Source: a phage. From it: a stretch of 64,000 nucleotides of DNA. The notes beneath the pieces were generated by a model. It was not told the DNA's origin. It worked only from the letters and a program-made list of their open reading frames with translations, and did not search any database. Every line of letters begins with the position of its first letter. The first letter of the stretch is position 1. Positions 27,638 through 41,520 of this stretch are shown in pieces. The DNA is taken from assembly GCA_028130375.1 (NCBI GenBank), contig GCA_028130375.1_3658.1; one strand, written 5' to 3'. A program made the position numbers and the translations under genes.

Positions 27638-27655
27638 TTTTTAACTGAATTATCA

Positions 27656-27679
27656 AGGGGCTTAGGCCCCTTTCTTTTT
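27656..27679 (+). terminator. intrinsic terminator (GGGGC-TTAG-GCCCC, TTTCTTTTT)
   Basis: Closes the plus-strand arm. Confidence 0.55.
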
Positions 27680-28298
27680 GTCTGCTCTTCCCCCCTACCA
27701 TAAACGGCCCTACCTGGCAAGTGGAATAATTGACGAGCCATCAATCCCACACACTGTACAAATATACATGTAAAATAGCTATTGCATAACCTTTCATTGT
27801 GTGGTAGCGGTGCTATTTTTTACCCGTTTTCCTTCCAAAATTGCACGTAATGCAGTTATTGCACAAAATTTAACCTGATGCACATCTTCAATATCTTGTC
27901 AACAACTAAAAATCTTTATAAGTCATACACTTACACAAACCAAAGAGCGTGTTCTACGTGAAAAATCGAGTATAACTATAGCCGCCAGATCTCAGAATTT
28001 ACGTACGCTCGCCATTCTATAGCCTGCTAAGCATTTATTCCAACCATAGAATAACGGAATAGTCAATACCTGCATAAAATAATTATTCGTGTAAACTGCA
28101 TAACATAAATCAGCTTAGGTGTCAACATTTTTCGTAAACAGTCTGAAATTATCACGGTGAGTTATCATAAACAGAGAAATCTTTAGTCGTCTAATGTTTA
28201 CTGTACGTTACTATACTAACTGAAATCATTAGATGACTAATAGAAAGATAAGAAATAATTAACAATACAATTATTTTATCTGTAACAATAAGGCAACT

Positions 28299-28531
28299 AT
28301 GCAAACGAATGGCATGGCGCGACGGAGTCGCGACATAATATAAAAGCAGTAACCATCACCCCCGTGATAGTTTGTCTGCAAACTATTAATCAGATCATAG
28401 TTGCCTTGTATTTAGTTAATCATGACATAACAAGCAAGGCAACTATAGATCTTCTAATAGTTGCCCTGCTTTTATATTATGTCATAGATTATTAACTTGC
28501 TAATAGTTATCATGCAAACGAATGGCATGGC
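28299..28531. repeat. 20-bp direct repeat pair (ATGCAAACGAATGGCATGGC) flanking GGCAACTAT palindromes
   Basis: Exact copies at 28299-28318 and 28512-28531; AAGGCAACTATAG..CTAATAGTTGCCCT inverted repeats between them. Confidence 0.6.
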
Positions 28532-28544
28532 TTATCATTTCCAT

Positions 28545-28620
28545 GTAAACTGTCAAGGTGTAAACTATCCAGGCGTAAACAGTCTATGCGGGAACAATCT
28601 ATACGTGAACAGTGAAACAT
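28545..28620. repeat. iteron-like array (5 x GTAAAC(A/T)(A/G)TC-like units, about 15-bp period)
   Basis: GTAAACTGTCA, GTAAACTATCC, GTAAACAGTCT, GGAACAATCT, GTGAACAGTG in tandem. Confidence 0.55.
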
Positions 28621-29159
28621 GAAATAATAACAGTCGTTATTGTTCCATATTGTGTCATAGTATGTCACCATTATGTCTAAAGTGTCTAAGGTGTCAGACA
28701 AGTTTTTCTCCTCTTTGTCAAGTGCTGCATGAAAAATTTACAATCTTGTATGGTAGCATTTTTGCGGCCATGTTTACATTCAGCGATGTATGTATAAGCC
28801 TTGTTGTGTGGGCGTTTAGACGTCTAGACGGTTGGAAGTCCACAGGTCAATATCTAATCTATCGGCTGCTAACTATATCCCACACAAATAGTAATAAATA
28901 TAATTGTTATATGCGTAAACAGTAACTCATGTTATCAATCCCTGTATGTATCGCCAGTGGTGCGCATAATGGGTATTATGTTAAATTGCCCGTAATGATA
29001 ACAGTTCTCACAATGATAGGTATTCTCATTCATCCACACAAAATAGGTTGCAAATGTTGTGCCACTGTGTGAACGGCCTGGCCTATTAATTTCTCTCACT
29101 GCCTCGATATTTGAGAATTGTTATAAGAATGAGAAGTATTCCCATTCCGTCCGCCTGGC

Positions 29160-29470
29160 AGCGCTCCTGTAGGTCCTGCAAGGACTCTAGCTGAAAGCTA
29201 GACCCTTCGGGCCTCCCTGTAGGTCAGGTCAAAATCGTGGCAGAACTGAGCCTGTTCAGATATTTCTGGCTGACTCTTCAGGTCTGTGTGGGAAAAGCCA
29301 ACCTCTCCGGCGGGGCAGGGGGAGGTCAATTAAAAAATTTACGTGGTGTATGAAGCGCTCTTCAGGTAAGGCAGGTATTATGGGATGAAACCCTCTTCAG
29401 GCAATGATATTTGTGGGTGTGATATTTGCTGGAAAGCCAGATATGACGGGACTCCCGGCGGGGCAGGGGT
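29160..29470. repeat. degenerate repeat cluster (CCGGCGGGGCAGGGG x2, CTCTTCAGG x3, CCTGTAGGTC x2)
   Basis: Exact 15-mers at 29306-29320 and 29454-29468 plus short recurring words; no convincing ORF. Confidence 0.5.
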
Positions 29471-30165
29471 AGTACAGACAGGGAAAATATGAGAATGTAG
29501 TTGGGGAAATTGATCAGACAGGTAGAGTATGGAATATGTTACAAGTATGTTAAATATGGAGGTTGAATATCTGTAGGATTTGTGTGTAAAATCAAAGACT
29601 TAAGGGGTGTTGTGGTATTTTCTATAAATAATTCAAGTTTAATAGGCAATATTTGTCTCTATCCGCTTTGTGTGGTAAACAGATTCAGATTAGATTGGTT
29701 TACAAGTGTATACATAATATACAAATTAAAGATACAAGAAACCCCCCTCCCCCCTTCGGCTACCATTCACCTTTTCCTCTGACTGGTACTTAAACACTTA
29801 TTCAGACTCTTCAGGTTATCACCCATATATCATATGGCAGTGACTGGTGTCCTCCGGCCCCTCTTTCGTCACCCGTCCGCTTCGCCATGCTAATGCCATA
29901 GCTAATGGTTCGGTTGTTCACCCTGTTCACTCAGGTGTATCTCTATACCCCTTCAAACCGAAGAGAACAGAAAACCCGAATTACTCGGTAAAAGAAAAGA
30001 GAAGAACTTAATTTTATCAGGATAGGCAAGAATGTCAAGGCATGACTGCTCACTAAACAAGCAAACAGTCATGTGTGGGAGGTAAGTGATTGTGGTGGTA
30101 GGAAATTTAGTTGAAAGATGTGTTATAGGTGCTTCCAGCACTTTAGCCGGGCAGCTAATTGTGTG

Positions 30166-31075: not shown

Positions 31076-31387
31076 CTATACCCATGAGGGCTTATCAAGG
31101 TTGGAGTAGCTGAAAGGTGTCAAAAGGTGACTGTCAAAATCTCTCAAACTATCTAAATCTTTTTCCTCGTCCTGACACCATCTGTGCCTACATTTATTGT
31201 TGTAGTGCATAGAATGCATAGCGTTCTGCAATTTAACAGGCACAAGTGATTCAGGAGTAGATAGTATTGTTGGGTATGCCAGAACCACCTCAAACAGTGG
31301 AAACACATCGAAACTAAAGTCTACCTCTGCAGAGGTTGATGGCATGTAAGAGTATTTAGCCGCCTTTGTAGACATAATCCACCTCAC
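31076..31387 (-). CDS. hypothetical protein
   Basis: 103 aa ORF. Confidence 0.5.
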   Translation of the reverse strand: MRWIMSTKAAKYSYMPSTSAEVDFSFDVFPLFEVVLAYPTILSTPESLVPVKLQNAMHSMHYNNKCRHRWCQDEEKDLDSLRDFDSHLLTPFSYSNLDKPSWV

Positions 31388-32779: not shown

Positions 32780-32863
32780 TTACTGAAATACAAGACACAG
32801 TGTTAAGGTTACTGACCAGCAAATAATTAACAGTGCCGTTGCAACCTTGGCAAGATTTATCAT
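32780..32863 (-). CDS. small hydrophobic peptide (27 aa)
   Basis: ATGA overlap with upstream stop; MINLAKVATALLIICWSVTLTLCLVFQ. Confidence 0.25.
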   Translation of the reverse strand: MINLAKVATALLIICWSVTLTLCLVFQ

Positions 32864-33147
32864 AGTGCCTCTAAGATTTCATATCCTTCGGGTCGGAATA
32901 CAAGCCACTCCGTGGCTCCGTTTGGTCGATACGCTTTATACAGAACAACCTGGTCTCGGCACATGCACATGGCTACATAGTTTTCATCCACACCTGCAGC
33001 CTGCATTGCATCTTCTTCTCCGGCAACTGCTTTGCTTACAACTTCCTTGGTAGGCAGGTGTGCGATCAGCTCGTCACCATCATTAATTCCAAAATGGCTG
33101 AGTTCGCCGTTGGTATCTTTAATCTTAATCTTAACCAGATCTTTCAT
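32860..33147 (-). CDS. hypothetical protein
   Basis: 95 aa ORF. Confidence 0.5.
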   Translation of the reverse strand: MKDLVKIKIKDTNGELSHFGINDGDELIAHLPTKEVVSKAVAGEEDAMQAAGVDENYVAMCMCRDQVVLYKAYRPNGATEWLVFRPEGYEILEAL

Positions 33148-33476
33148 TAGTCTTCCCCCAGGTTCAAAGGTCCTAAGATTTCATATGCCAGATTAGAAGT
33201 TACAAGAGGGTCTTCTGCGTCTTTAGTATTATACCACCCGTGAATAACCAGAGCCCCACTTTGTTTCATGTCCAACTGGAACTCTTCTGCCGTTTCCTCA
33301 TCCAGCTCCAAGATTTCCATAAGGTATTTGATGTTAGGGAGGTATGCAGCTGTTACAGTCCCCTCTACCAGACCTTCAGGCCAACCTACATCTGGATGAC
33401 AAGTAGGAACCAGGTTGGTCAGCTTAATGGTGTACGCTTTTTCTGCACGAGCCTTCAGTAACGGGTCAATCTTCAT
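33147..33476 (-). CDS. hypothetical protein
   Basis: 109 aa ORF. Confidence 0.5.
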   Translation of the reverse strand: MKIDPLLKARAEKAYTIKLTNLVPTCHPDVGWPEGLVEGTVTAAYLPNIKYLMEILELDEETAEEFQLDMKQSGALVIHGWYNTKDAEDPLVTSNLAYEILGPLNLGED

Positions 33477-33826
33477 TATTCGTCCTCCTCTTCGGTACCT
33501 GCTTCCAGTAATAAGTTAAGAATATCTTCTGCACAAGGTTCATAGAACTCTTGGCCTTCATTATCGATGATTTTGTAGTCATCTCCACGAATAATCAGGG
33601 GATCACTCTCAAAATTATCGAGACCTTTAACAACGACAACACGATCGATTGCCATCATTGTAAGAACTTTATCGACATCTTCCTCTGCTACACCATACTG
33701 CAGCAGAATGTCTTTGGTAGGAGGAACAGCATCCACCACAACGCCGTTACCAAAACCTTCTGGAAGTTTAGCTAAAATATCTTCCGGAACCACATTCACA
33801 TCAAAACCGGTAATTTCTACTTTCAT
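33476..33826 (-). CDS. hypothetical acidic protein
   Basis: 116 aa ORF. Confidence 0.5.
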   Translation of the reverse strand: MKVEITGFDVNVVPEDILAKLPEGFGNGVVVDAVPPTKDILLQYGVAEEDVDKVLTMMAIDRVVVVKGLDNFESDPLIIRGDDYKIIDNEGQEFYEPCAEDILNLLLEAGTEEEDE

Positions 33827-34087
33827 TTACAGCACCTCTTCGTCAACTACTTCATAAAAATGGCCTGGGATTGCAATAGCGTTCTCACCTTCACCTACAA
33901 ACACAGTTCCGTCAAGAATCAACATCATAAGAATTTCTGTAATATCCTCTTCCGGAACGTTGCCAAAACCTTTAATCAGCTCGTAGGTTGGAATATTTAC
34001 CTCTAAGATGTCACCATCTTTAGAACGGAAATCAACACCGTCCTGAATCTCTGCCGTTTCAAGGTTTTTCAATTTAATCTTCATCAA
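33827..34087 (-). CDS. hypothetical protein
   Basis: 86 aa ORF. Confidence 0.5.
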   Translation of the reverse strand: MMKIKLKNLETAEIQDGVDFRSKDGDILEVNIPTYELIKGFGNVPEEDITEILMMLILDGTVFVGEGENAIAIPGHFYEVVDEEVL

Positions 34088-34163
34088 TCGGTCCCCTGTC
34101 TTGTTAAGATGAAGGTATTATTTCACACAGGGTTGGCGTTGTCAACACCTGTGTGCAAGAAAA

Positions 34164-34559
34164 TTACTGAAACAGTGCGGATAAATTACCTTCTGGTGGG
34201 AACTTATCTGCCAAAAACGGTGTTAGCACAGTAGCCTTCTGAAGATCTGGGGTCCACTCGTTGTTCAGAACATCCCAGTAGTACGCAATGTTGCTGTGTG
34301 GGTGCCGCATTACGAACTTTTTCCCTTCGTAGTCATCTGAAACCTCTACAGAAGAAATAACAACAGAATCTTCAAGGGTTTCTTCATAGAAAGATCCACC
34401 TTCAAATTTCCAACGAGATGCAAGAGCCCCTGCCTTGAACGCTGCAGATAACGGACTGTCGGCAAGAACATACATTTCTTGCACTCTGTCGCTGCGATCT
34501 TTGCTTCTTACGTTGTATACAGTATCTGAGCTATACTCAACACGGTATAGGCTTACCAT
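34164..34559 (-). CDS. hypothetical protein (paralogue of 36371-36769)
   Basis: Shares ..(V/R)HP(D/H)S..YW....(T/E)WTP.. with 36371-36769. Confidence 0.5.
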   Translation of the reverse strand: MVSLYRVEYSSDTVYNVRSKDRSDRVQEMYVLADSPLSAAFKAGALASRWKFEGGSFYEETLEDSVVISSVEVSDDYEGKKFVMRHPHSNIAYYWDVLNNEWTPDLQKATVLTPFLADKFPPEGNLSALFQ

Positions 34560-34891
34560 TACCGCACCTCCTCAATAACTTCCACATCTGAACCTACCAC
34601 AAATGCAAAAGGACAGGTTTCATGAAAGATATCCGGATCGCCGCCAAGCTTGCTAACAATTTCTCCACCACTAATAAACACAAGCTCACCGATATTCATC
34701 AGATTGCTGAAATAGTACCCATAATGATTAAAGAATGCAGCAGGGTCAGGTAGACTAGTAGCCTCAAGCACTACATCGGTTGAGGTTACTTTCTTATCAT
34801 AACCTCTCGCCTTTTGAGATGCAAGATCTGCAGAATCCTCAGGCGACCGGAGATGCATAGGAATTGTTTCACCAATAAAGCGTACTTTCAT
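34559..34891 (-). CDS. hypothetical protein, MKVK-type small paralogue family
   Basis: ATG 34891 (MKVRFIG..) chosen over TTG 34918; C-terminal ..FVVGSDVEVIEE.. resembles 36782-37036. Confidence 0.45.
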   Translation of the reverse strand: MKVRFIGETIPMHLRSPEDSADLASQKARGYDKKVTSTDVVLEATSLPDPAAFFNHYGYYFSNLMNIGELVFISGGEIVSKLGGDPDIFHETCPFAFVVGSDVEVIEEVR

Positions 34892-34895
34892 ATTA

Positions 34896-35159
34896 TCACC
34901 CAACAACCATAGCTTCAAAAGGAGTCATGAACGAATAAACGGCATCATCATCTGCTTCAGGGAATGCTCCCAAAGACTTCATATCTGAGCCCTTGACAAA
35001 TACAAGGTTTTGATCAAAGGCTTCTTGGGGGTCAATCCGATACATATTTCGTAAAATATCGCTTACCTCCTCATCAAGAGGTGAGTATGCTGTGCACGTT
35101 TTTCCGATCAAGCTTTGAGAATCAGGGTATCCACCTGAAGTTTTAAAATAAACAATCAT
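34896..35159 (-). CDS. hypothetical protein
   Basis: 87 aa ORF. Confidence 0.45.
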   Translation of the reverse strand: MIVYFKTSGGYPDSQSLIGKTCTAYSPLDEEVSDILRNMYRIDPQEAFDQNLVFVKGSDMKSLGAFPEADDDAVYSFMTPFEAMVVG

Positions 35160-35250
35160 ATAGTATCACCTCTGGTAAGAGATTGGGACTCCTTTCCCAC
35201 AAATAATTACAAATCTTCCTTAGCGAGGAAGTATGCTAATCCAAGCAGGA

Positions 35251-35520
35251 TTATTCCTCTACAATCTCATACACATCAGGAGTTACAATCAACTCTTCTC
35301 CGTTACCCGGTGCAACAAACACCACCAAACCTTCAGGTGTGTGCTTTTTAGCCATCTCGATAACATCTTCTCGCAGAGCTGGCTCCATCAGATCAAAACC
35401 TTCACCTAGGGCATCACGAACCACCTTCATATAGTCCACTGGTTGTGCTTCAACAATCATGCCTTCAACCAGTCCACAATTTTTGTCTGCCAGCTCAGTT
35501 TGGAATAATTTAATTTTCAT
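35251..35520 (-). CDS. hypothetical protein
   Basis: 89 aa ORF. Confidence 0.5.
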   Translation of the reverse strand: MKIKLFQTELADKNCGLVEGMIVEAQPVDYMKVVRDALGEGFDLMEPALREDVIEMAKKHTPEGLVVFVAPGNGEELIVTPDVYEIVEE

Positions 35521-35546
35521 TTAGAGGTCTCCTCAATTATTTGATA

Positions 35547-35648
35547 TTAATAGCCGTAACCTAACACATTAACTACAACTGCGATTGCAAACATAATTTC
35601 AAAGCATGCAATCTCTACATTTGGGACTAATTTCTTAATCACACCCAT
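35547..35648 (-). CDS. small hydrophobic peptide (33 aa)
   Basis: Not in the track; RBS GGAGAATGAGGTG; MGVIKKLVPNVEIACFEIMFAIAVVVNVLGYGY. Confidence 0.3.
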   Translation of the reverse strand: MGVIKKLVPNVEIACFEIMFAIAVVVNVLGYGY

Positions 35649-35657
35649 TGTAGCACC

Positions 35658-35978
35658 TCATTCTCCAAAGTCAATCTTTACTTTGCCTTTCCCCTTACCT
35701 TTCTTTCCACCGCATTTAGCCAGCTGACGTGCTGCAACATCTACCATACGGTCAGTTGCCTCGTAAGCATCACTGCCTTTAGCCTTGGCAATAACTTCTT
35801 TTCCAGAATTGTCAAAAATGAACGCCATAACTTCCTGGTGATCATTTTCAACTTTTACACTCACACGTGCATAGTTAACAGAGGGATGTAAACGCTCCAG
35901 CTTGGACATTTTGCGGGAAATAAAAGATACCATACCTTCTGTGATTTCTACATTGTTGCCAGTGATTTCAATTTGCAT
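35658..35978 (-). CDS. hpf: ribosome hibernation promoting factor / RaiA (S30AE family) homologue
   Basis: 106 aa; MQIEITGNNVEITEGMVSFISRKMSKLERL.. closely parallels bacterial HPF (MQLNITGNNVEIT..AKLEQ..) and ..AARQLAK.. matches ..LARQLTK..; own promoter and RBS. Confidence 0.8.
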   Translation of the reverse strand: MQIEITGNNVEITEGMVSFISRKMSKLERLHPSVNYARVSVKVENDHQEVMAFIFDNSGKEVIAKAKGSDAYEATDRMVDVAARQLAKCGGKKGKGKGKVKIDFGE

Positions 35979-36027
35979 AACGTGTTCCTTTTAAGGAAGA
36001 GGGAATAACTATCTCTCTTTGAAAACA

Positions 36028-36056
36028 ATGATACTAAATCTGAAGCGTTGTGTCAA
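36028..36056 (-). promoter_or_regulatory. sigma70-like promoter on minus strand (TTGACA-17-TATCAT) upstream of hpf
   Basis: TGTCAA at 36051-36056 and ATGATA at 36028-36033 on the plus strand. Confidence 0.5.
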
Positions 36057-36062
36057 CAGTTT

Positions 36063-36353
36063 TTACAGCTTGTTGTCGATAGTTTTTAAAATATCCACAG
36101 CAAGATCTGCCATTTTTCGAACATACTCTGCAAACTCAACAGGATCCTTGATCAAAGAATTCACAGGGTCGTACCCTAGAGCGTTTAAAATGGCTGCAGC
36201 ATCTACAACCTTCTCATCATTTGCGAAGATCTCTCCGTCAAACTTGTAGGTCCATTTCGAGTCAACCTTAGCAGAGCAGGGTTTGTCCATGCTTGTTACA
36301 CTATCGTCTTTAAACTCTCCTGCGTTATCAATATTTAGAATTAAATCCATCAT
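36063..36353 (-). CDS. hypothetical protein
   Basis: 96 aa ORF. Confidence 0.5.
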   Translation of the reverse strand: MMDLILNIDNAGEFKDDSVTSMDKPCSAKVDSKWTYKFDGEIFANDEKVVDAAAILNALGYDPVNSLIKDPVEFAEYVRKMADLAVDILKTIDNKL

Positions 36354-36370
36354 GGTGACACCTCACTGTT

Positions 36371-36769
36371 TCAGTTTAGCTTTTCTTCAACAACCCCATA
36401 ACTTGGGGCAGAGTCAAGAGCTTTCTGGTTTAAAAGTGGCGTAGCAGAATCTGCAAACGGTGTCCAAGTTTTTGTTCTGGCATTCCAGTAATGCTTCACT
36501 CTGGAATCTGGATGCACTATAACAAAAACTTTTTCACTTGTCAACACATTAATTTCTTCTACACCCTTGCTGATAATTTCTCCGTCATAGCCCCCAGTCT
36601 GGTATCCTTCGTACCAGGTTCTTGCATAGGCATAGCCAGCCTGCCAGCATGCAGCCTCCTCCGAGGTGGAGACTACGTAGAAGTCTTTCTCAAATTCTGG
36701 AACACGCCCTTGCTTTACGCTCCAAGCCCCGCGAATTTTCATTGTAACTTTAAACAGTTTATTTTTCAC
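36371..36769 (-). CDS. hypothetical protein (paralogue of 34164-34559)
   Basis: 132 aa; ..VHPDSRVKHYWNARTKTWTPF.. Confidence 0.5.
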   Translation of the reverse strand: MKNKLFKVTMKIRGAWSVKQGRVPEFEKDFYVVSTSEEAACWQAGYAYARTWYEGYQTGGYDGEIISKGVEEINVLTSEKVFVIVHPDSRVKHYWNARTKTWTPFADSATPLLNQKALDSAPSYGVVEEKLN

Positions 36770-36781
36770 AACGGTTACCCA

Positions 36782-37036
36782 TCACAGCTCTACAATATCT
36801 GCATCTGACCCTACCCCAAAGGCATAGTAGGACTCTTCCCCGAAATAATATTCAGGTGCACCAGCGGTGATCAGGTCTGATCCCAAGATAAACACCACGT
36901 TGTGGCCTACATAACTGTGATGTTGCCGCACAGGATCATCCCACGGCAACCCTTCAAAGTATACCGCAGGAACGACCTTTCCATTCAGGAAGGATTGTCC
37001 CAAGTAGATGTTAGAATCAAGAATTTTAACCTTCAT
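36782..37036 (-). CDS. hypothetical protein, MKVK-type small paralogue family
   Basis: MKVKILDSNIYLGQ..DLITAGA.. Confidence 0.5.
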   Translation of the reverse strand: MKVKILDSNIYLGQSFLNGKVVPAVYFEGLPWDDPVRQHHSYVGHNVVFILGSDLITAGAPEYYFGEESYYAFGVGSDADIVEL

Positions 37037-37253
37037 GATCGTCCTCCACTACCTCTACATCCTCACCTAGGGCAAAGTTATAGGTCCACTGACTGTCAAA
37101 GCATTCCTGAGATGCACCAGCGGCAATAAGATCTGCTCCTTTTATTTTTAAAAGGTCAGGGTAATCTTCGTTAGGGACAGCAGTAAACACTTTTCCTACT
37201 AAAGGCTCCTGACCAATATAGAAGCTTGAATCTAAAACTTTAACTTTCATCAA
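37026..37253 (-). CDS. hypothetical protein, MKVK-type small paralogue family
   Basis: MMKVKVLDSSFYIGQ..DLIAAGA..EVVE.. Confidence 0.5.
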   Translation of the reverse strand: MMKVKVLDSSFYIGQEPLVGKVFTAVPNEDYPDLLKIKGADLIAAGASQECFDSQWTYNFALGEDVEVVEDDHEG

Positions 37254-37537
37254 CGGTCTCCATCAGGTGGTTGTGGGACGTAAACACTGTTACGAATATC
37301 GTCAGCAGTGTAGTAATAAGTGGTTCCAACCCTGTCTCGGGCTGCAATGTACTCTGCTATACCAATAAGTGCCATTGATTTGGTGGCGTATCTTCCCAAC
37401 TCGTTAGCTCCCCAGTAGAATTTAGACCAGTAGGGAATAAGACCGAACAAATATACCTTTTGACGAACTTCCCAGTAAGTGCCTTTTCCGACAAGTTTAA
37501 ACTCTACTTCACTACTGTTAATCTTTTTCATTATCAA
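37250..37537 (-). CDS. hypothetical protein
   Basis: 95 aa ORF. Confidence 0.5.
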   Translation of the reverse strand: MIMKKINSSEVEFKLVGKGTYWEVRQKVYLFGLIPYWSKFYWGANELGRYATKSMALIGIAEYIAARDRVGTTYYYTADDIRNSVYVPQPPDGDR

Positions 37538-37830
37538 TCTCCCTCTACCGTGGTCGGATTGTCAGTAAGAAATTGAGCATTGGCTGGAGGCACGCCTGAC
37601 ATTTTCCACACAACCATAAGTTTGTAACCAGGCACTCTATTAAGTGCAGATCGAGTAGAGTTTGTGCACGTATACTTTCGCTTTCCAAACCCGTTCTCCA
37701 TCATAATCCAGTACCCAGTATCTTTGTCACCAGGTATCGGTAGACCACCTTCATCAACCCACTGAATGGACCACGGCACGATGGCTACAGCTTTATATTT
37801 AAACTTTTTAAACCACTCAAAAAGTTTCAT
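37534..37830 (-). CDS. hypothetical protein
   Basis: 98 aa ORF. Confidence 0.5.
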   Translation of the reverse strand: MKLFEWFKKFKYKAVAIVPWSIQWVDEGGLPIPGDKDTGYWIMMENGFGKRKYTCTNSTRSALNRVPGYKLMVVWKMSGVPPANAQFLTDNPTTVEGD

Positions 37831-38015
37831 AATTCAGCCTCGCTTGGCAACTCTTCTACCTTAACATGCCGAAAAGTGTTACCGTAATGGTTGATCCATG
37901 ACATCAGCTCGCTTTCTTGCTCTTCCTCTGGGATGAACTCTCGAATGCTGACAAGTTTTAAGAAAACCCAATCACAATCTGCACCCATTCTACCAGACAG
38001 GCAATAGTGCTTCAT
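37827..38015 (-). CDS. hypothetical protein
   Basis: 62 aa ORF. Confidence 0.4.
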   Translation of the reverse strand: MKHYCLSGRMGADCDWVFLKLVSIREFIPEEEQESELMSWINHYGNTFRHVKVEELPSEAEL

Positions 38016-38033
38016 AAAACCCTCCTGCCTGGT

Positions 38034-38228
38034 TTAGAATATTGCTTCTTCCATTGCGCCTGAGAGCAACAAAGAGGTGATCTGGCTAACATTCATCTCA
38101 GACTCTACTTCCTCCCCTTTGAAAGGTTCGCGGCAGAATAGGACTGTTTCAGGACTTTTACTTCGAACAATATAATACAAATCATTCAATGTGTTGTAGT
38201 AATAAGTGTTAAAACGTAAGTTTTTCAT
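38034..38228 (-). CDS. hypothetical protein
   Basis: 64 aa ORF. Confidence 0.4.
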   Translation of the reverse strand: MKNLRFNTYYYNTLNDLYYIVRSKSPETVLFCREPFKGEEVESEMNVSQITSLLLSGAMEEAIF

Positions 38229-38512
38229 TTTCTAGTCCTCTTCTTAGATTTTTGGGGAGAAACGCTTTCTGCAATACGAGACAGACGTTCTTCTGAAGCC
38301 TTACCTACTCCAGGTTTTTTGAGTGGATTATCTTTATGACCACAATCCAACTGGATATTGGATACCTCTCCAACTTTGTAAGTCAATTCTAGCAAAAGGT
38401 TGTCGTCCTTGTCAAATGTTTTTACGATAAATTTTTTATCGTTCTCCTGAACTTCATATCTGGTACCTGCAGTATACAGCATGGTGCCATCAGCATAGGA
38501 TATCCAGATCAT
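38225..38512 (-). CDS. hypothetical protein
   Basis: 95 aa, basic C-terminus. Confidence 0.45.
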   Translation of the reverse strand: MIWISYADGTMLYTAGTRYEVQENDKKFIVKTFDKDDNLLLELTYKVGEVSNIQLDCGHKDNPLKKPGVGKASEERLSRIAESVSPQKSKKRTRK

Positions 38513-38856
38513 TGAGCCTCCTTTTGCTGCAACAGCATTAACTCTTTGTTAGAGATCTTTACTGCTGTTTTTATTGTTCCATCTTCACGAAACCACGACC
38601 AGAACTCTACAGTGTCACCACTATCAAGTAAAGCATGCCCATGGTAAAAATCTTTGTCCTTAGACAGTTTCTCATCTATATCTGCATCAACACATTCGTG
38701 ATCCATAGCATTTTGCCTGAACGCATCGGTTATGCCAATGCACGCCTTGCTCTCAAGACTGGTATATCCGATATCTTTTAATTCAGTTTCCCAAGTCCAG
38801 TACCCTATAAAAGCTAAAACAGCTACCCACAGTAATAACGTTTTAATCTTTGGCAT
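38509..38856 (-). CDS. putative secreted or membrane-anchored protein
   Basis: 115 aa; N-terminal ..MPKIKTLLLWVAVLAFIGYWTWE.. Confidence 0.5.
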   Translation of the reverse strand: MPKIKTLLLWVAVLAFIGYWTWETELKDIGYTSLESKACIGITDAFRQNAMDHECVDADIDEKLSKDKDFYHGHALLDSGDTVEFWSWFREDGTIKTAVKISNKELMLLQQKEAQ

Positions 38857-38918
38857 TCTCTCTACCTCTTTCTTAGTTTATTTCACTATGGCACATCCTT
38901 TGTGCCATATCTCAACTA

Positions 38919-39389
38919 CTACTTAAATAGTAGTTCAAAATAGTGCAAAATTAACAGAAGTTGAACTACACCTAGTGCAACGGCGAGTATGTTAATCTTA
39001 GAATCGAAAAACTTCTTAACTTTTACTCTAAAAGGTTCCTTAATGTCCTTTACGATCCTATCTATAGATGACCTCATATCTCTGATTACCATCCTGAACA
39101 TTAAAGACGGATGCTCCCCCATCTCTGTAACGGAATCGAAAACATACTCTCTTCGGTCATAAGGGCCGCCAGCTCTGCGTATTAACCTCTCCACAGAGAC
39201 CTCGAACGTCACACCTGTAACGTAATCATCTATAACAAGTCGTGACGGGTCTTTACCTTTACTATCAAGAGGTATCAAAGTTATCTTTCCAGATTTTGTT
39301 AAAATTTCCCCTTTTTCAAGCAAGGTGTACCAATGCTCTCTGCCAAGACTGTTGAGGCACGTTTTTACATATTTAACAAACATCGTCAC
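38919..39389 (-). CDS. hypothetical protein with C-terminal transmembrane segment
   Basis: 156 aa; ..ILAVALGVVQLLLILHYF.. at C-terminus. Confidence 0.5.
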   Translation of the reverse strand: MTMFVKYVKTCLNSLGREHWYTLLEKGEILTKSGKITLIPLDSKGKDPSRLVIDDYVTGVTFEVSVERLIRRAGGPYDRREYVFDSVTEMGEHPSLMFRMVIRDMRSSIDRIVKDIKEPFRVKVKKFFDSKINILAVALGVVQLLLILHYFELLFK

Positions 39390-39589
39390 CCCTCATCGCA
39401 CGTCTGATATAACCACTCTATAAAATCTTGATACCATTCGCCCTCTGAGCGCTCCGTAGGCCAATAATCTTCACCCTCTCGTGCATTAAAATCTGAGTAT
39501 TCAACTTTCCACTCCTTTACCAGCTCGTGGAGAAGGTTTTCAGCCTGCTCTAAAGATTTATTTTTTACCATTGCTGTCTCCTTTTTCAA
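39386..39589 (-). CDS. hypothetical protein
   Basis: 67 aa ORF. Confidence 0.45.
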   Translation of the reverse strand: MKKETAMVKNKSLEQAENLLHELVKEWKVEYSDFNAREGEDYWPTERSEGEWYQDFIEWLYQTCDEG

Positions 39590-39790
39590 GATAGTTATAC
39601 ATCAGAACTGCACCACCTAAGATGGCTACCAGTAACAATATCCCAGATAGCATCTCAATAAACATGGCTTGAAACACTGGAAGGTCTCCCTAAATTAACG
39701 CACCATTTTAAATACATGCTCTTTTCCCATAAAGGTGCCTGGCTAAGATCTGCGTAGAACGCAATCTCTTTAAGAACAGTATAGATAGTT

Positions 39791-40018
39791 TTAGGTGCGG
39801 TCTCCATCCCTACTCTCCTTCCTGATATTCTTGTAGTAATCAACTAGGCACATTATTACGATGAAGATAACAACAGGCCAAAAAGGTGCAGCAGTGATGA
39901 TGGTGATAAAATCATCAAACTTCACCCTTCGTCTGGACACGATGCATACACCTGTCAAGAATACCGCTGTTATAACGGACATTACCAGGTAACCTATTAG
40001 CACAACATTTATACTCAT
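39791..40018 (-). CDS. putative membrane protein
   Basis: 75 aa; two hydrophobic segments. Confidence 0.45.
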   Translation of the reverse strand: MSINVVLIGYLVMSVITAVFLTGVCIVSRRRVKFDDFITIITAAPFWPVVIFIVIMCLVDYYKNIRKESRDGDRT

Positions 40019-40048
40019 TGGTCCTCCCTTTGTAGGTTAAATTGTATA

Positions 40049-40582
40049 CTACAAATGGTCGCTGAGGGTGTCAAGAAAATTATCCCGTTCTTTCTCAGAG
40101 TTTTCATGTGTGTAGCTGAAAAACATATCGAGAATAACCTTATTGATATATTCCAGCTCCTCTGTGTTCAGATGCTTAGCAGGATCTACAATGACATCCC
40201 AAATATCATACAGACCACACTCATGATACCCATAACGCCACTCAATTGTCAAGCTGAGCGGCAAATCTTTACCTTCACAAACAACCTTCCATCTACATAT
40301 GTTGGTATCTGGTCGTACCTGTGCACGGTACACCTGCACAAAATCCAATTTGAATTTGAGGTACTCGTCATACAATTTAAGCACAAAGCTCTCGATTTGT
40401 GGAGACACTTTTGCAGCAAACTGTGCGTATTTGTACTTGCACTGGATGATCTTTCTGCGTTTTGCAGTTAAATTTTTTGCCGCCAGTTGTTCTTCAGTGT
40501 ATCTCCACCTACGATCAACAAACGCAACAGGGTCTTTGTCCCCATAGAGGTCTTCCCAGTTAATCAGAAGCATACCTGTCAC
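40049..40582 (-). CDS. hypothetical protein
   Basis: 177 aa ORF. Confidence 0.5.
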   Translation of the reverse strand: MTGMLLINWEDLYGDKDPVAFVDRRWRYTEEQLAAKNLTAKRRKIIQCKYKYAQFAAKVSPQIESFVLKLYDEYLKFKLDFVQVYRAQVRPDTNICRWKVVCEGKDLPLSLTIEWRYGYHECGLYDIWDVIVDPAKHLNTEELEYINKVILDMFFSYTHENSEKERDNFLDTLSDHL

Positions 40583-40812
40583 TCCTCCACAACTTCAAGG
40601 CCTTTACCGCCTCGCTCTGGCAGATTACTTAAAGATAGGTAATACATATAATCAGGAGAGATCCTGCCAGACTCTGCACCTGCAGCTAGTAAATCCTTAC
40701 CTTTAACCAGGACAACATTCTCGTTTGCAGATAGCCGTTTTGCTTCCACAATTTTACCAACACAGTCAACCAAGGAAGGGTACCCTAAATCTGTAAGAAA
40801 TTTAACTTTCAT
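40579..40812 (-). CDS. hypothetical protein, MKVK-type small paralogue family
   Basis: MKVKFLTDLGYPSLVDCVGKIVEA..DLLAAGA..LEVVEE. Confidence 0.5.
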   Translation of the reverse strand: MKVKFLTDLGYPSLVDCVGKIVEAKRLSANENVVLVKGKDLLAAGAESGRISPDYMYYLSLSNLPERGGKGLEVVEE

Positions 40813-40849
40813 GCTACCTCCTACCTACCGTCCCTGGTAAGATAAATTA

Positions 40850-41248
40850 TTACTGAACAGAGCGCGGTGCTGGGAAGGATAACTCTTCTAAAGAGAAGAT
40901 TTCATTTCCTACCACCCAAGTTGCTGGGTCATCTGGATCAACAGGTTGGATAATCATTACCTCATCCGCCTCGCACACACGTTTACCACCCATAGTAGCG
41001 TCAGCCACTAACATACGCGGCTCTTCAGAAATGCACAGGTAGCCACCTCGGCCCACTGTTCCTTCCACGGGATCCTGCCCTTTGACCACAATGAATACCT
41101 TCTCTCCTGTGGAGATATTACTTTTCACACTAACAGTTTGACCAACTTTAGATGTACCGATCTTGGTGGCTTCAAACATTAAATCCCGAATTACTGTTGC
41201 ATAGTTGCCGGACACTTTCTTACCTTCTTTAGTAATCTCAATCTTCAT
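40850..41248 (-). CDS. hypothetical protein
   Basis: 132 aa ORF. Confidence 0.5.
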   Translation of the reverse strand: MKIEITKEGKKVSGNYATVIRDLMFEATKIGTSKVGQTVSVKSNISTGEKVFIVVKGQDPVEGTVGRGGYLCISEEPRMLVADATMGGKRVCEADEVMIIQPVDPDDPATWVVGNEIFSLEELSFPAPRSVQ

Positions 41249-41484
41249 AATCTAGGCTCCTTAAATGAATCTATGTAATCAATTAAATCCCAAGCATCGC
41301 GATGGGCTGTCAGAGGGTATACTTCTCCGAGAGGGATCATAGCAATAAGTCTATCAAAAACCCAGTCTGGACGCAACATTTTATGGTGATATTCCCACTC
41401 ACCTTCCACAGATTTTTTCTGAGTGATCAGGATCTCTGTGTAGTGTTTCGCCTGTCTTGAGTAGATTGAAAATGACTTGTACAT
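41245..41484 (-). CDS. hypothetical protein
   Basis: 79 aa ORF. Confidence 0.45.
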   Translation of the reverse strand: MYKSFSIYSRQAKHYTEILITQKKSVEGEWEYHHKMLRPDWVFDRLIAMIPLGEVYPLTAHRDAWDLIDYIDSFKEPRL

Positions 41485-41520
41485 AAATTACCCCCTCTTG
41501 TTGAAAACAACAATACACAA

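Follow-up and report, generated by a model that had tools for sequence, protein, structure and literature searches.

In a 64,000-nt stretch of phage DNA (contig GCA_028130375.1_3658.1 of NCBI GenBank assembly GCA_028130375.1; the whole stretch is called the window below) we find that seven small minus-strand genes between positions 34164 and 40812 make up two paralogous families, A (five genes) and B (two genes), and that they are laid out as cassette 1 (37026/36782/36371) and cassette 2 (34896/34559/34164), each of the order A-A-B, accompanied by a solo A gene (40579). Published transposon data from the near-identical phage Bas54 show these genes to be dispensable on Escherichia coli K-12, while cassette 2 and, less so, the B gene of cassette 1 are needed to multiply on a uropathogenic isolate. 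To our minds it is an evenly balanced call that the two old, diverged cassettes and the solo A gene are host-specific infection determinants, which may work by neutralising a strain-specific host factor. The region had originally been predicted to hold tandem arrays of small paralogous genes; clustered the paralogues are, but they form two A-A-B cassettes and a solo A gene rather than a simple tandem array:

g40579: 40579..40812, minus strand, solo family A gene, 77 aa, phrog_5009 E=8e-36
g37026: 37026..37250, minus strand, family A, cassette 1 position 1, 74 aa, phrog_5009 E=2e-38, structure modelled
g36782: 36782..37036, minus strand, family A, cassette 1 position 2, 84 aa, phrog_5009 E=7e-32
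g36371: 36371..36769, minus strand, family B, cassette 1 position 3, 132 aa, GTG start, phrog_7379 E=1e-73
g34896: 34896..35159, minus strand, family A, cassette 2 position 1, 87 aa
g34559: 34559..34891, minus strand, family A, cassette 2 position 2, 110 aa, long insertion
g34164: 34164..34559, minus strand, family B, cassette 2 position 3, 131 aa, phrog_7379 E=2e-66

These genes, which are labelled 'hypothetical protein' in every annotated record of relatives, belong to a minus-strand block (~30.1-43.4 kb) of ~38 small genes that also includes hpf, an N6-adenine methyltransferase, a ClpP-like protease, PhoH and NrdDG. Over positions 33000-41500 the window shares 99.8% identity with Escherichia phage Murica; for many other Vequintavirus (rV5-like) coliphages the figure is 98-99%. 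In the order of transcription, solo g40579 is followed by ~3 kb of other small genes, cassette 1 (g37026, g36782, g36371), one unrelated gene, hpf, a 33-aa hydrophobic open reading frame (ORF), g35251 and cassette 2 (g34896, g34559, g34164). Genes within the cassettes are tightly packed: in cassette 2, g34559 begins 4 nt after the g34896 stop and ends in a stop codon that shares 1 nt with the start of g34164, and in cassette 1 an 11-nt overlap joins the two A genes, with a 12-nt gap before B. The A proteins are mostly acidic (isoelectric point (pI) 4.1-4.7; solo g40579, 5.4), the B proteins have pI values of 4.7 (g34164) and 7.8 (g36371), and hydrophobicity calculations identified no hydrophobic member among them.

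Paralogy of the A and B genes

Paralogy within both families is real and lies far above chance. All-against-all BLASTP on 38 proteins of the block links g37026 to g36782 (40% identity, E=1e-14), to g40579 (E=7e-7) and to g34559 (E=4e-4), g36782 to g34559 (E=6e-4), and the two B proteins to each other (28% identity over 119 aa, E=7e-10). When a hidden Markov model (HMM) of the three core A members was run against 746 stop-to-stop ORFs of the window, g34896 (E=3e-6) and g34559 (E=1e-4) were the only ones recovered, the runner-up ORF lying at E=1.7. Compared by hhalign with an external-only profile, made from 31 homologues of other phages, the five A genes reached probabilities of 99.4, 99.1 (g40579), 98.8, 94.4 (g34559) and 90.8% (g34896), and the other 33 block proteins no higher than 4.8%; the two B genes, compared with each other, reached 97%, and not one of 2000 shuffles attained the real score, be it for the weaker A members or for the B pair. 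In the PHROGs database, three A genes (g40579, g37026, g36782) fall into phrog_5009, as do all 35 aligned family-A homologues, g34896 falls into phrog_13920 (with an additional weak match to phrog_5009, E=1e-4) and g34559 into phrog_13661, while both B genes match the phrog_7379 HMM over their full length.

The original prediction had named at least four minus-strand genes that share an MKVK-type pattern, and the four it listed all belong to family A by the similarity tests above; it had overlooked the fifth member at 34896-35159. Its second pair (36371-36769 and 34164-34559) is likewise related, and the alignments and HMM-HMM comparisons it had proposed return significant similarity rather than a likeness of composition. 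All six ORFs lie on the minus strand as described, but the 37026 gene more likely starts at ATG 37250, as in the Murica annotation, than at TTG 37253.

An N-terminal MK(V/I)K and acidic C-termini are widespread among the small genes of the block, so one might suppose that we are looking at unrelated ORFans made alike by composition or chance. This supposition, to which we give next to no credence, is refuted by the similarity tests, being contradicted by the E-values, the external profile, the shuffles and PHROG co-membership as well as by the structural match of a g34896 orthologue described below.

A predicted SH3-like barrel for family A

The AlphaFold2 model of g37026, computed from a 35-sequence alignment, scores a predicted local distance difference test (pLDDT) value of 94.5 and a predicted template modelling (pTM) score of 0.81, and folds five strands and one short helix into an SH3-like barrel. 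g36782 carries an insertion between strands 2 and 3. A Foldseek search of the PDB with this model returned nothing significant (every hit E>0.3), and its best matches among the predicted viral structures of BFVD are uncharacterised phage proteins. One of them, the g34896 orthologue from Shigella phage CM1 (87 aa), aligns in its BFVD model with that of g37026 at a template modelling (TM) score of 0.81, which lends independent support to placing g34896 in family A. Structural neighbours of the fold include KOW domains and ribosomal proteins. Going by the model, the fold suggests a binding module rather than an enzyme, SH3-like folds being typical of modules that bind proteins or nucleic acids, albeit without assigning a function.

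Distribution of the two families

Single-sequence searches for homologues returned solely near-identical rV5-like proteins, and going further needed a profile search. Run with the family-A profile over 1.84 billion representative proteins, it yielded 47 clusters (defined at 50% identity) with E<=1e-3, nearly all of 63-87 aa and with the consensus MKVKLLxxGGYxGMxxVxGKVVEA...I.GxDLIxAGA...F....Y.F..G.E.EVIEE. Fusion polypeptides of two and three family-A repeats exist elsewhere (P0024, P0029). Longer homologues were also considered as fusions to other domains, an idea we dropped as they carry no informative Pfam domain and an ankyrin-like match in one of them (P0056) is spurious. Family A has no Pfam match at E<=1 for the window members and none for the 35 homologues, no NCBIfam match and none in a PDB profile search. 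By tblastn, it occurs in temperate coliphages, RB49-like T4-type and T1-like phages, and phages of Proteus, Vibrio, Klebsiella and Iodobacter, and outside the rV5-like phages the genes found in this way invariably sit among small uncharacterised genes. Family A is a widespread, phage-only family.

Solo g40579 has its nearest outside relatives in mEp021_40-like genes of temperate coliphages (41-49% identity); mEp021_40 itself lies between Q and holin, and the mEp021 paper does not mention gp40. LL5 (Tlsvirus) has a family-A member at the left end of its genome. In the T4-like phage Phi1 (Krischvirus, EF437941 39781-46987), the family-A profile matches at least five annotated ORFs (ORF071, 073, 074, 076 and 080) that lie between gp38 and dam in a span of 3.5 kb, so tandem amplification of family A took place independently in an unrelated lineage.

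For family B, homologues searched for across phages were found in rV5-like phages only. Their alignment preserves the motif HPxS...YW.....W, and Pfam (E<=1), NCBIfam and PDB-profile searches gave no match. A WW domain was tried as an explanation for HPxS..YW.....W(T/V)(P/S) and rejected, given that neither Pfam at E<=1 nor the PDB profile search matched it; the spacing of the motif is also shorter than in the WW consensus. Sequences of either family are absent from the supplements of an accessory-gene screen (PMC12373910).

Copy number, conservation and selection

Copy numbers among relatives are as follows:

Murica, Bas58, Bas54 and rV5: family A 5, family B 2, the full set
Bas59: family A 3, family B 1; natural deletion of ~3.7 kb with cassette 1 and neighbours, the B fragment being fused to another ORF
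L013 and L014 (two metagenomic rV5-like contigs): family A 3 and 4 in the stretches examined, family B 2
L016 (divergent relative, 40-88% aa identity): family B 1; cassette 2 intact

In L013 and L014 the tandem A pair is replaced by one hybrid gene that joins the g37026 N-terminus to the g36782 C-terminus (P0006/P0007). The divergent L016 retains cassette 2 at 58% and 53% identity for the A genes and 40% for B (g34164), and of its cassette 1 one A gene is kept, the second (g36782) is reduced to 44 aa and B is absent. Across ~119 Vequintavirus genomes A and B orthologues are mostly 92-100% identical; an orthologue of g34559 is present in 119/119 records, and in 3/119 a full-length close orthologue of g36371 is missing, the query finding only a diverged paralogue (<60% identity). 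Judged by these sequences, cassette 1 can be dispensed with in evolution whereas cassette 2 cannot, and the variation that exists is one of presence or absence and recombination of cassette 1.

Paralogues within each family are 27-40% identical. The ratio of non-synonymous to synonymous substitution rates (dN/dS), pooled by family and taken from one genome pair of low divergence (window and rV5), comes to 0.14 in family A and 0.11 in family B, the other block genes having 0.12. Because orthologues are this conserved and dN/dS equals that of the neighbours, the paralogues are old duplicates, each of them under purifying selection. The original idea that they are diverging under arms-race selection is accordingly not supported by orthologue identity or dN/dS. 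We also considered that the entire cassette was duplicated as one segment and rejected this, as position-matched A genes are not mutually closest. Instead, g37026 is nearest to its neighbour g36782, which, together with the existence of hybrids, fits gene conversion or recombination between neighbours.

The region ~36371-40100 is recombinationally plastic. In Bas59, ~3.7 kb with cassette 1 are gone, and at the junction a fused ORF has arisen (bas59_0152, annotated 'putative glycosidase') in which the fragment of the 36371 B gene lies. A further fusion (P0012) joins B(36371) to the C-terminus of g36063. In Bas54, six genes (37534-39389) are missing through natural deletion.

Transposon data from Bas54

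Phage transposon sequencing (Tn-seq) that includes Bas54 (MaxBurger, MZ501093) has been reported in the HIDEN-SEQ preprint (10.1101/2025.11.20.689424). The Bas54 locus is identical to window 34100-35260 at 1158/1161 nt, gene order maps one to one, and bas54_0152 is identical in sequence to g34896. On K-12, all seven A/B orthologues are non-essential or intermediate (Data S2 of the preprint). Comparing K-12 with the uropathogenic isolate CFE311 (TRANSIT table, Data S7), the log2 fold changes (log2FC) and adjusted P values (Padj) are:

bas54_0152 (A 34896): log2FC -7.16, mean 0.0 reads, 14 TA sites, Padj 0
bas54_0151 (A 34559): log2FC -6.17, mean 0.0 reads, 21 TA sites, Padj 0
bas54_0150 (B 34164): log2FC -6.77, mean 0.0 reads, 24 TA sites, Padj 0
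bas54_0157 (B 36371): log2FC -2.14 (~4-fold depleted), Padj 0
bas54_0158 (A 36782): log2FC -0.30, unaffected
bas54_0159 (A 37026): log2FC +0.98, unaffected
bas54_0166 (solo A 40579): log2FC +0.72, unaffected
bas54_0155 (hpf): log2FC -0.53, unaffected

The transposon carries no terminator, and its authors make the case that polar effects are uncommon (10.1101/2025.11.20.689424). In keeping with this, insertions in bas54_0158 and bas54_0159, just upstream of the depleted bas54_0157, are not depleted themselves. Two other genes, bas54_0063 and bas54_0140, were shown in the preprint to counteract the DS-28 system of CFE311, and we can place bas54_0140 (log2FC -5.48 on CFE311) by gene order and size at window 31076-31375, that is, in the same block and ~3 kb from the A/B genes. 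Of the CFE311 systems, DS-28 and Gao_Tmn only were cloned, and they were tested with mutants other than those of cassette 2 and bas54_0157. A preprint on Bas54 evolution in the Aionostat reports changes in tail-fibre loci and none in the A/B region.

What the cassettes may do

How might these genes determine infection of a specific host? Family A proteins (65-110 aa, mostly acidic, soluble and predicted to form SH3-like barrels) could be small binders, and family B (~131 aa) is tightly, probably translationally, coupled to the A gene before it. Stoichiometric binding would then neutralise a host factor peculiar to the strain, most probably part of an immunity system. Among specific roles, counter-defence is the likeliest. 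Both A proteins of a cassette and B may act together, possibly as a complex. That they cooperate is suggested by A and B being adjacent and coupled in both cassettes, and that A copies act together by fused A-A(-A) proteins and A arrays recurring in other phages. The reading as host-specific determinants draws support from the validated anti-defence gene bas54_0140 in the same block, from natural variation that mirrors the phenotype (cassette 2 always kept; cassette 1 deleted, fused or decayed), and from the host-type (sigma-70-like) promoters, two of them annotated in rV5, that precede the block's small non-essential genes. Thus, where the original prediction spoke of host-interaction or anti-defence functions, zero reads in cassette 2 and the ~4-fold depletion of the 36371 B gene on CFE311 speak for it, if indirectly and in part, but no defence system has been matched to the A/B genes.

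The missing defence match heads a number of points that weigh against our reading. Three of the five A genes (the solo and both cassette-1 copies) have no CFE311 phenotype, dN/dS is without a signal of an ongoing arms race, and no match was obtained to known anti-defence families (e.g. Ocr, ArdA, Acr) covered by Pfam and NCBIfam. On the modelling side, the predicted SH3-like fold is functionally non-specific and the family-B model is unreliable (pLDDT 51.5, from an alignment of four sequences only). As for the Tn-seq evidence, it comes from a preprint supplement and one clinical isolate: sheets S6 (labelled CFE303) and S7 (CFE311) of supplement file 10 carry identical values, probably a duplicated sheet, which leaves CFE311 as effectively the sole clinical-isolate condition. 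The preprint text omits bas54_0150-0152, its follow-up being limited to bas54_0063 and bas54_0140 (10.1101/2025.11.20.689424). Requirement on one isolate could also reflect any difference between strains rather than immunity, and translational coupling could make A-gene insertions in cassette 2 act through loss of B.

The main rival is strain-dependent host takeover, by which the A/B proteins are modulators of host physiology that have nothing to do with immunity. As small binders they might, for instance, adjust translation, proteolysis or transcription of the host alongside neighbours such as hpf, the ClpP-like protease, PhoH and the methyltransferase, and their importance would depend on the physiology of the strain. 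We regard this as doubtful, albeit worth serious thought, since the A/B genes share their block with hpf, the ClpP-like protease, PhoH and NrdDG, cassette 2 lies downstream of the hpf promoter, KOW domains and ribosomal proteins are found among the structural neighbours of the SH3-like fold, and selection on the orthologues is of the ordinary purifying kind. Against it, hpf itself is without a CFE311 phenotype, Pfam and NCBIfam returned no KOW, ribosomal or other match, and a total loss of insertions on one isolate as opposed to full tolerance on K-12 is the pattern of the validated genes bas54_0063 and bas54_0140. A narrower rival takes up the coupling argument and sees B alone as the effector, with the A genes as dispensable accessory or regulatory partners, those of cassette 2 seeming required solely through lost coupled translation of B. 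Both B paralogues are depleted on CFE311 and the cassette-1 A genes are not, the stop-start overlap and the 4-nt spacing in cassette 2 would allow for such coupling, and cassette 1, where A insertions have no effect, has the 12-nt gap between A and B. Still, this seems unlikely to us, as the transposon was built for read-through, with little polarity reported by its authors, and as the cassette-2 A genes are kept in every genome examined, including L016, which argues for a function of their own.

That the proteins are virion-associated, either structural or ejected together with the DNA, we hold to be very improbable. Although rV5 and Murica carry the label 'virion structural protein' on a nearby gene (38919-39389), and mEp021_41, which adjoins the family-A gene of mEp021, is likewise labelled as structural, none of the records seen gives any of the seven genes a structural annotation, all seven tolerate insertions on K-12, and they lie in a sigma-70-promoter block outside the structural module, with no signal or packaging motif noticed.

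Returning to host-specific infection determinants, a more elaborate form of this reading sees A-A-B as a multi-component counter-defence module, hitherto unrecognised, in which two SH3-like A proteins and a lineage-specific B would jointly neutralise a determinant of immunity in uropathogenic E. coli. Here family A would serve as a modular binding scaffold, which phages may repeatedly amplify, as tandem arrays or fused repeats, to cover different host targets. We put this forward tentatively and think it rather unlikely to hold in full.

Surroundings of the cassettes

Other features of the block are:

35658..35978, minus strand, hpf/RaiA homologue between the cassettes, TIGR00741 56.8 bits against a cut-off of 40.9
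35547-35648, minus strand, small hydrophobic ORF, 33 aa, grand average of hydropathy (GRAVY) 1.37
39558-39677 and 39791-40018, further small hydrophobic ORFs
40049-40582, 177-aa gene between solo A and the hydrophobic ORFs, 'putative glycosidase' in BASEL records and 'hypothetical' elsewhere
36028..36056, minus strand, sigma-70-like promoter ahead of hpf, TTGACA-17-TATCAT, 11/12, listed for rV5 as 'Sigma70-type promoter P144'
35215..35231, minus strand, terminator-like hairpin between 35251-35520 and cassette 2, 6-bp stem and T-rich tail, consensus match
34117..34145, minus strand, sigma-70-like promoter directly downstream of cassette 2, TTGACA-17-AATAAT, 11/12, P150 in rV5
32860-33147, 33147-33476, 33476-33826 and 33827-34084, minus strand, four tandem small acidic genes, candidate family 'C' by HMM-HMM comparison

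The interleaving of the paralogues with hpf (whose counterparts in relatives match PF02482) and with small hydrophobic ORFs is as originally described. Sigma-70-like sites with at least 10/12 matches number 12 on the gene strand and 1 on the opposite strand. The promoter at 36028..36056 probably drives hpf, 35547 and 35251, and possibly cassette 2, while the one at 34117..34145 would mark the 3' boundary of the cassette-2 transcription unit; a Vequintavirus transcriptome was looked for in the literature and none was found. Another strong promoter match (40252-40223) lies inside the gene 40049-40582.

Just downstream of cassette 2, the four genes from 32860 to 34084 are probably a third paralogue family, on weaker evidence than A and B: HMM-HMM comparison gives 91% for g33476 with g33827, 84% for g33147 with g33476 and 53% for g33827 with g35251, so that 35251-35520 possibly belongs here as well, and BLASTP adds support at E=3e-4. 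These genes (32860-34084 and 35251-35520) were tried as relatives of family A and rejected, profile and HMM-HMM comparison detecting no relationship. Their orthologues bas54_0146-0149 show no CFE311 phenotype in the HIDEN-SEQ data (10.1101/2025.11.20.689424).

Between the plus-strand and minus-strand gene blocks, ~2.5 kb (27640-30165) hold no convincing ORFs and have the lowest GC content of the window (0.397). Iteron-like copies of ATAGTTGCC(C/T)TG occur in both orientations at 28283-28515, along with two perfect repeats, one direct (20 nt, 28299/28512) and one inverted (18 nt, 28332/28466); tRNA and Rfam matches were looked for and not found. The corresponding intergenic region of Bas54 tolerates zero transposon insertions (10.1101/2025.11.20.689424), and this stretch may have an essential role in cis, for instance as an origin or regulatory hub.

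Among the records that match window 33000-41500, at up to 99.8% identity, are 18 GenBank entries titled 'Campylobacter phage' (MG0656xx, host C. jejuni). As they match an E. coli rV5-like phage, they look like mislabelled or contaminant phage genomes.

Significance and comparison with known systems

Few coliphages are isolated as often as the Vequintavirinae, which are candidates for therapy and most of whose ~230 genes are uncharacterised; an unusual sensitivity to restriction systems has been reported for them (PMC8594841). Seven of their 'hypothetical proteins' now become a defined, testable unit with a confident predicted fold, a repeated cassette architecture and Tn-seq evidence that its authors did not discuss, and going by these existing data one cassette decides whether the phage grows on a clinical isolate. 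Should the target prove to be an immunity system, then family A (47 clusters, with multi-copy arrays in unrelated phages) would represent a widespread scaffold for anti-defence that was not known before, and the cassette a marker for predicting host range. Already known are the genes and their PHROG clusters, databased as unknowns, and paralogous small accessory genes are familiar from early regions of phages. What is new are the unification of family A with its fifth member, the predicted SH3-like fold, the duplicated A-A-B cassette with differential retention and the Tn-seq link. Rather than a new kind of system, we see in this a solid lead.

Direct HMM matches tie family A to phrog_5009, phrog_13367, phrog_13920 and phrog_13661, and family B to phrog_7379, all of 'unknown function'. 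PHROGs thus spreads family A over several clusters and gives neither function, fold nor gene arrangement, and relative to it the joining of clusters, the SH3-like fold and the A-A-B cassette are contributions of the present analysis. On the level of predicted structure, family A has the five-strand SH3-like barrel in common with SH3 domains, the KOW domains of Spt5/NusG and PsaE; with sequence identities of 4-25% and no Pfam SH3 or KOW match, the resemblance is one of fold only. In Phi1 and LL5, family A sits in the hyperplastic regions of small early genes known from T4-like and T1-like phages. Such regions are defined by position and plasticity (rather than a common function) and, unlike them, family B and the A-A-B cassette have turned up in rV5-like phages only.

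The same Tn-seq screen brought up T-even anti-defence examples against Septu, Druantia III and Mokosh (10.1101/2025.11.20.689424). As regards the validated genes bas54_0140 and bas54_0063, which act on DS-28, they have no sequence similarity to families A and B, and in cassette 2 three adjacent genes are required and not one. What all these examples do share with cassette 2 is their behaviour, in that they, too, are non-essential on K-12 and strongly depleted on a clinical isolate.

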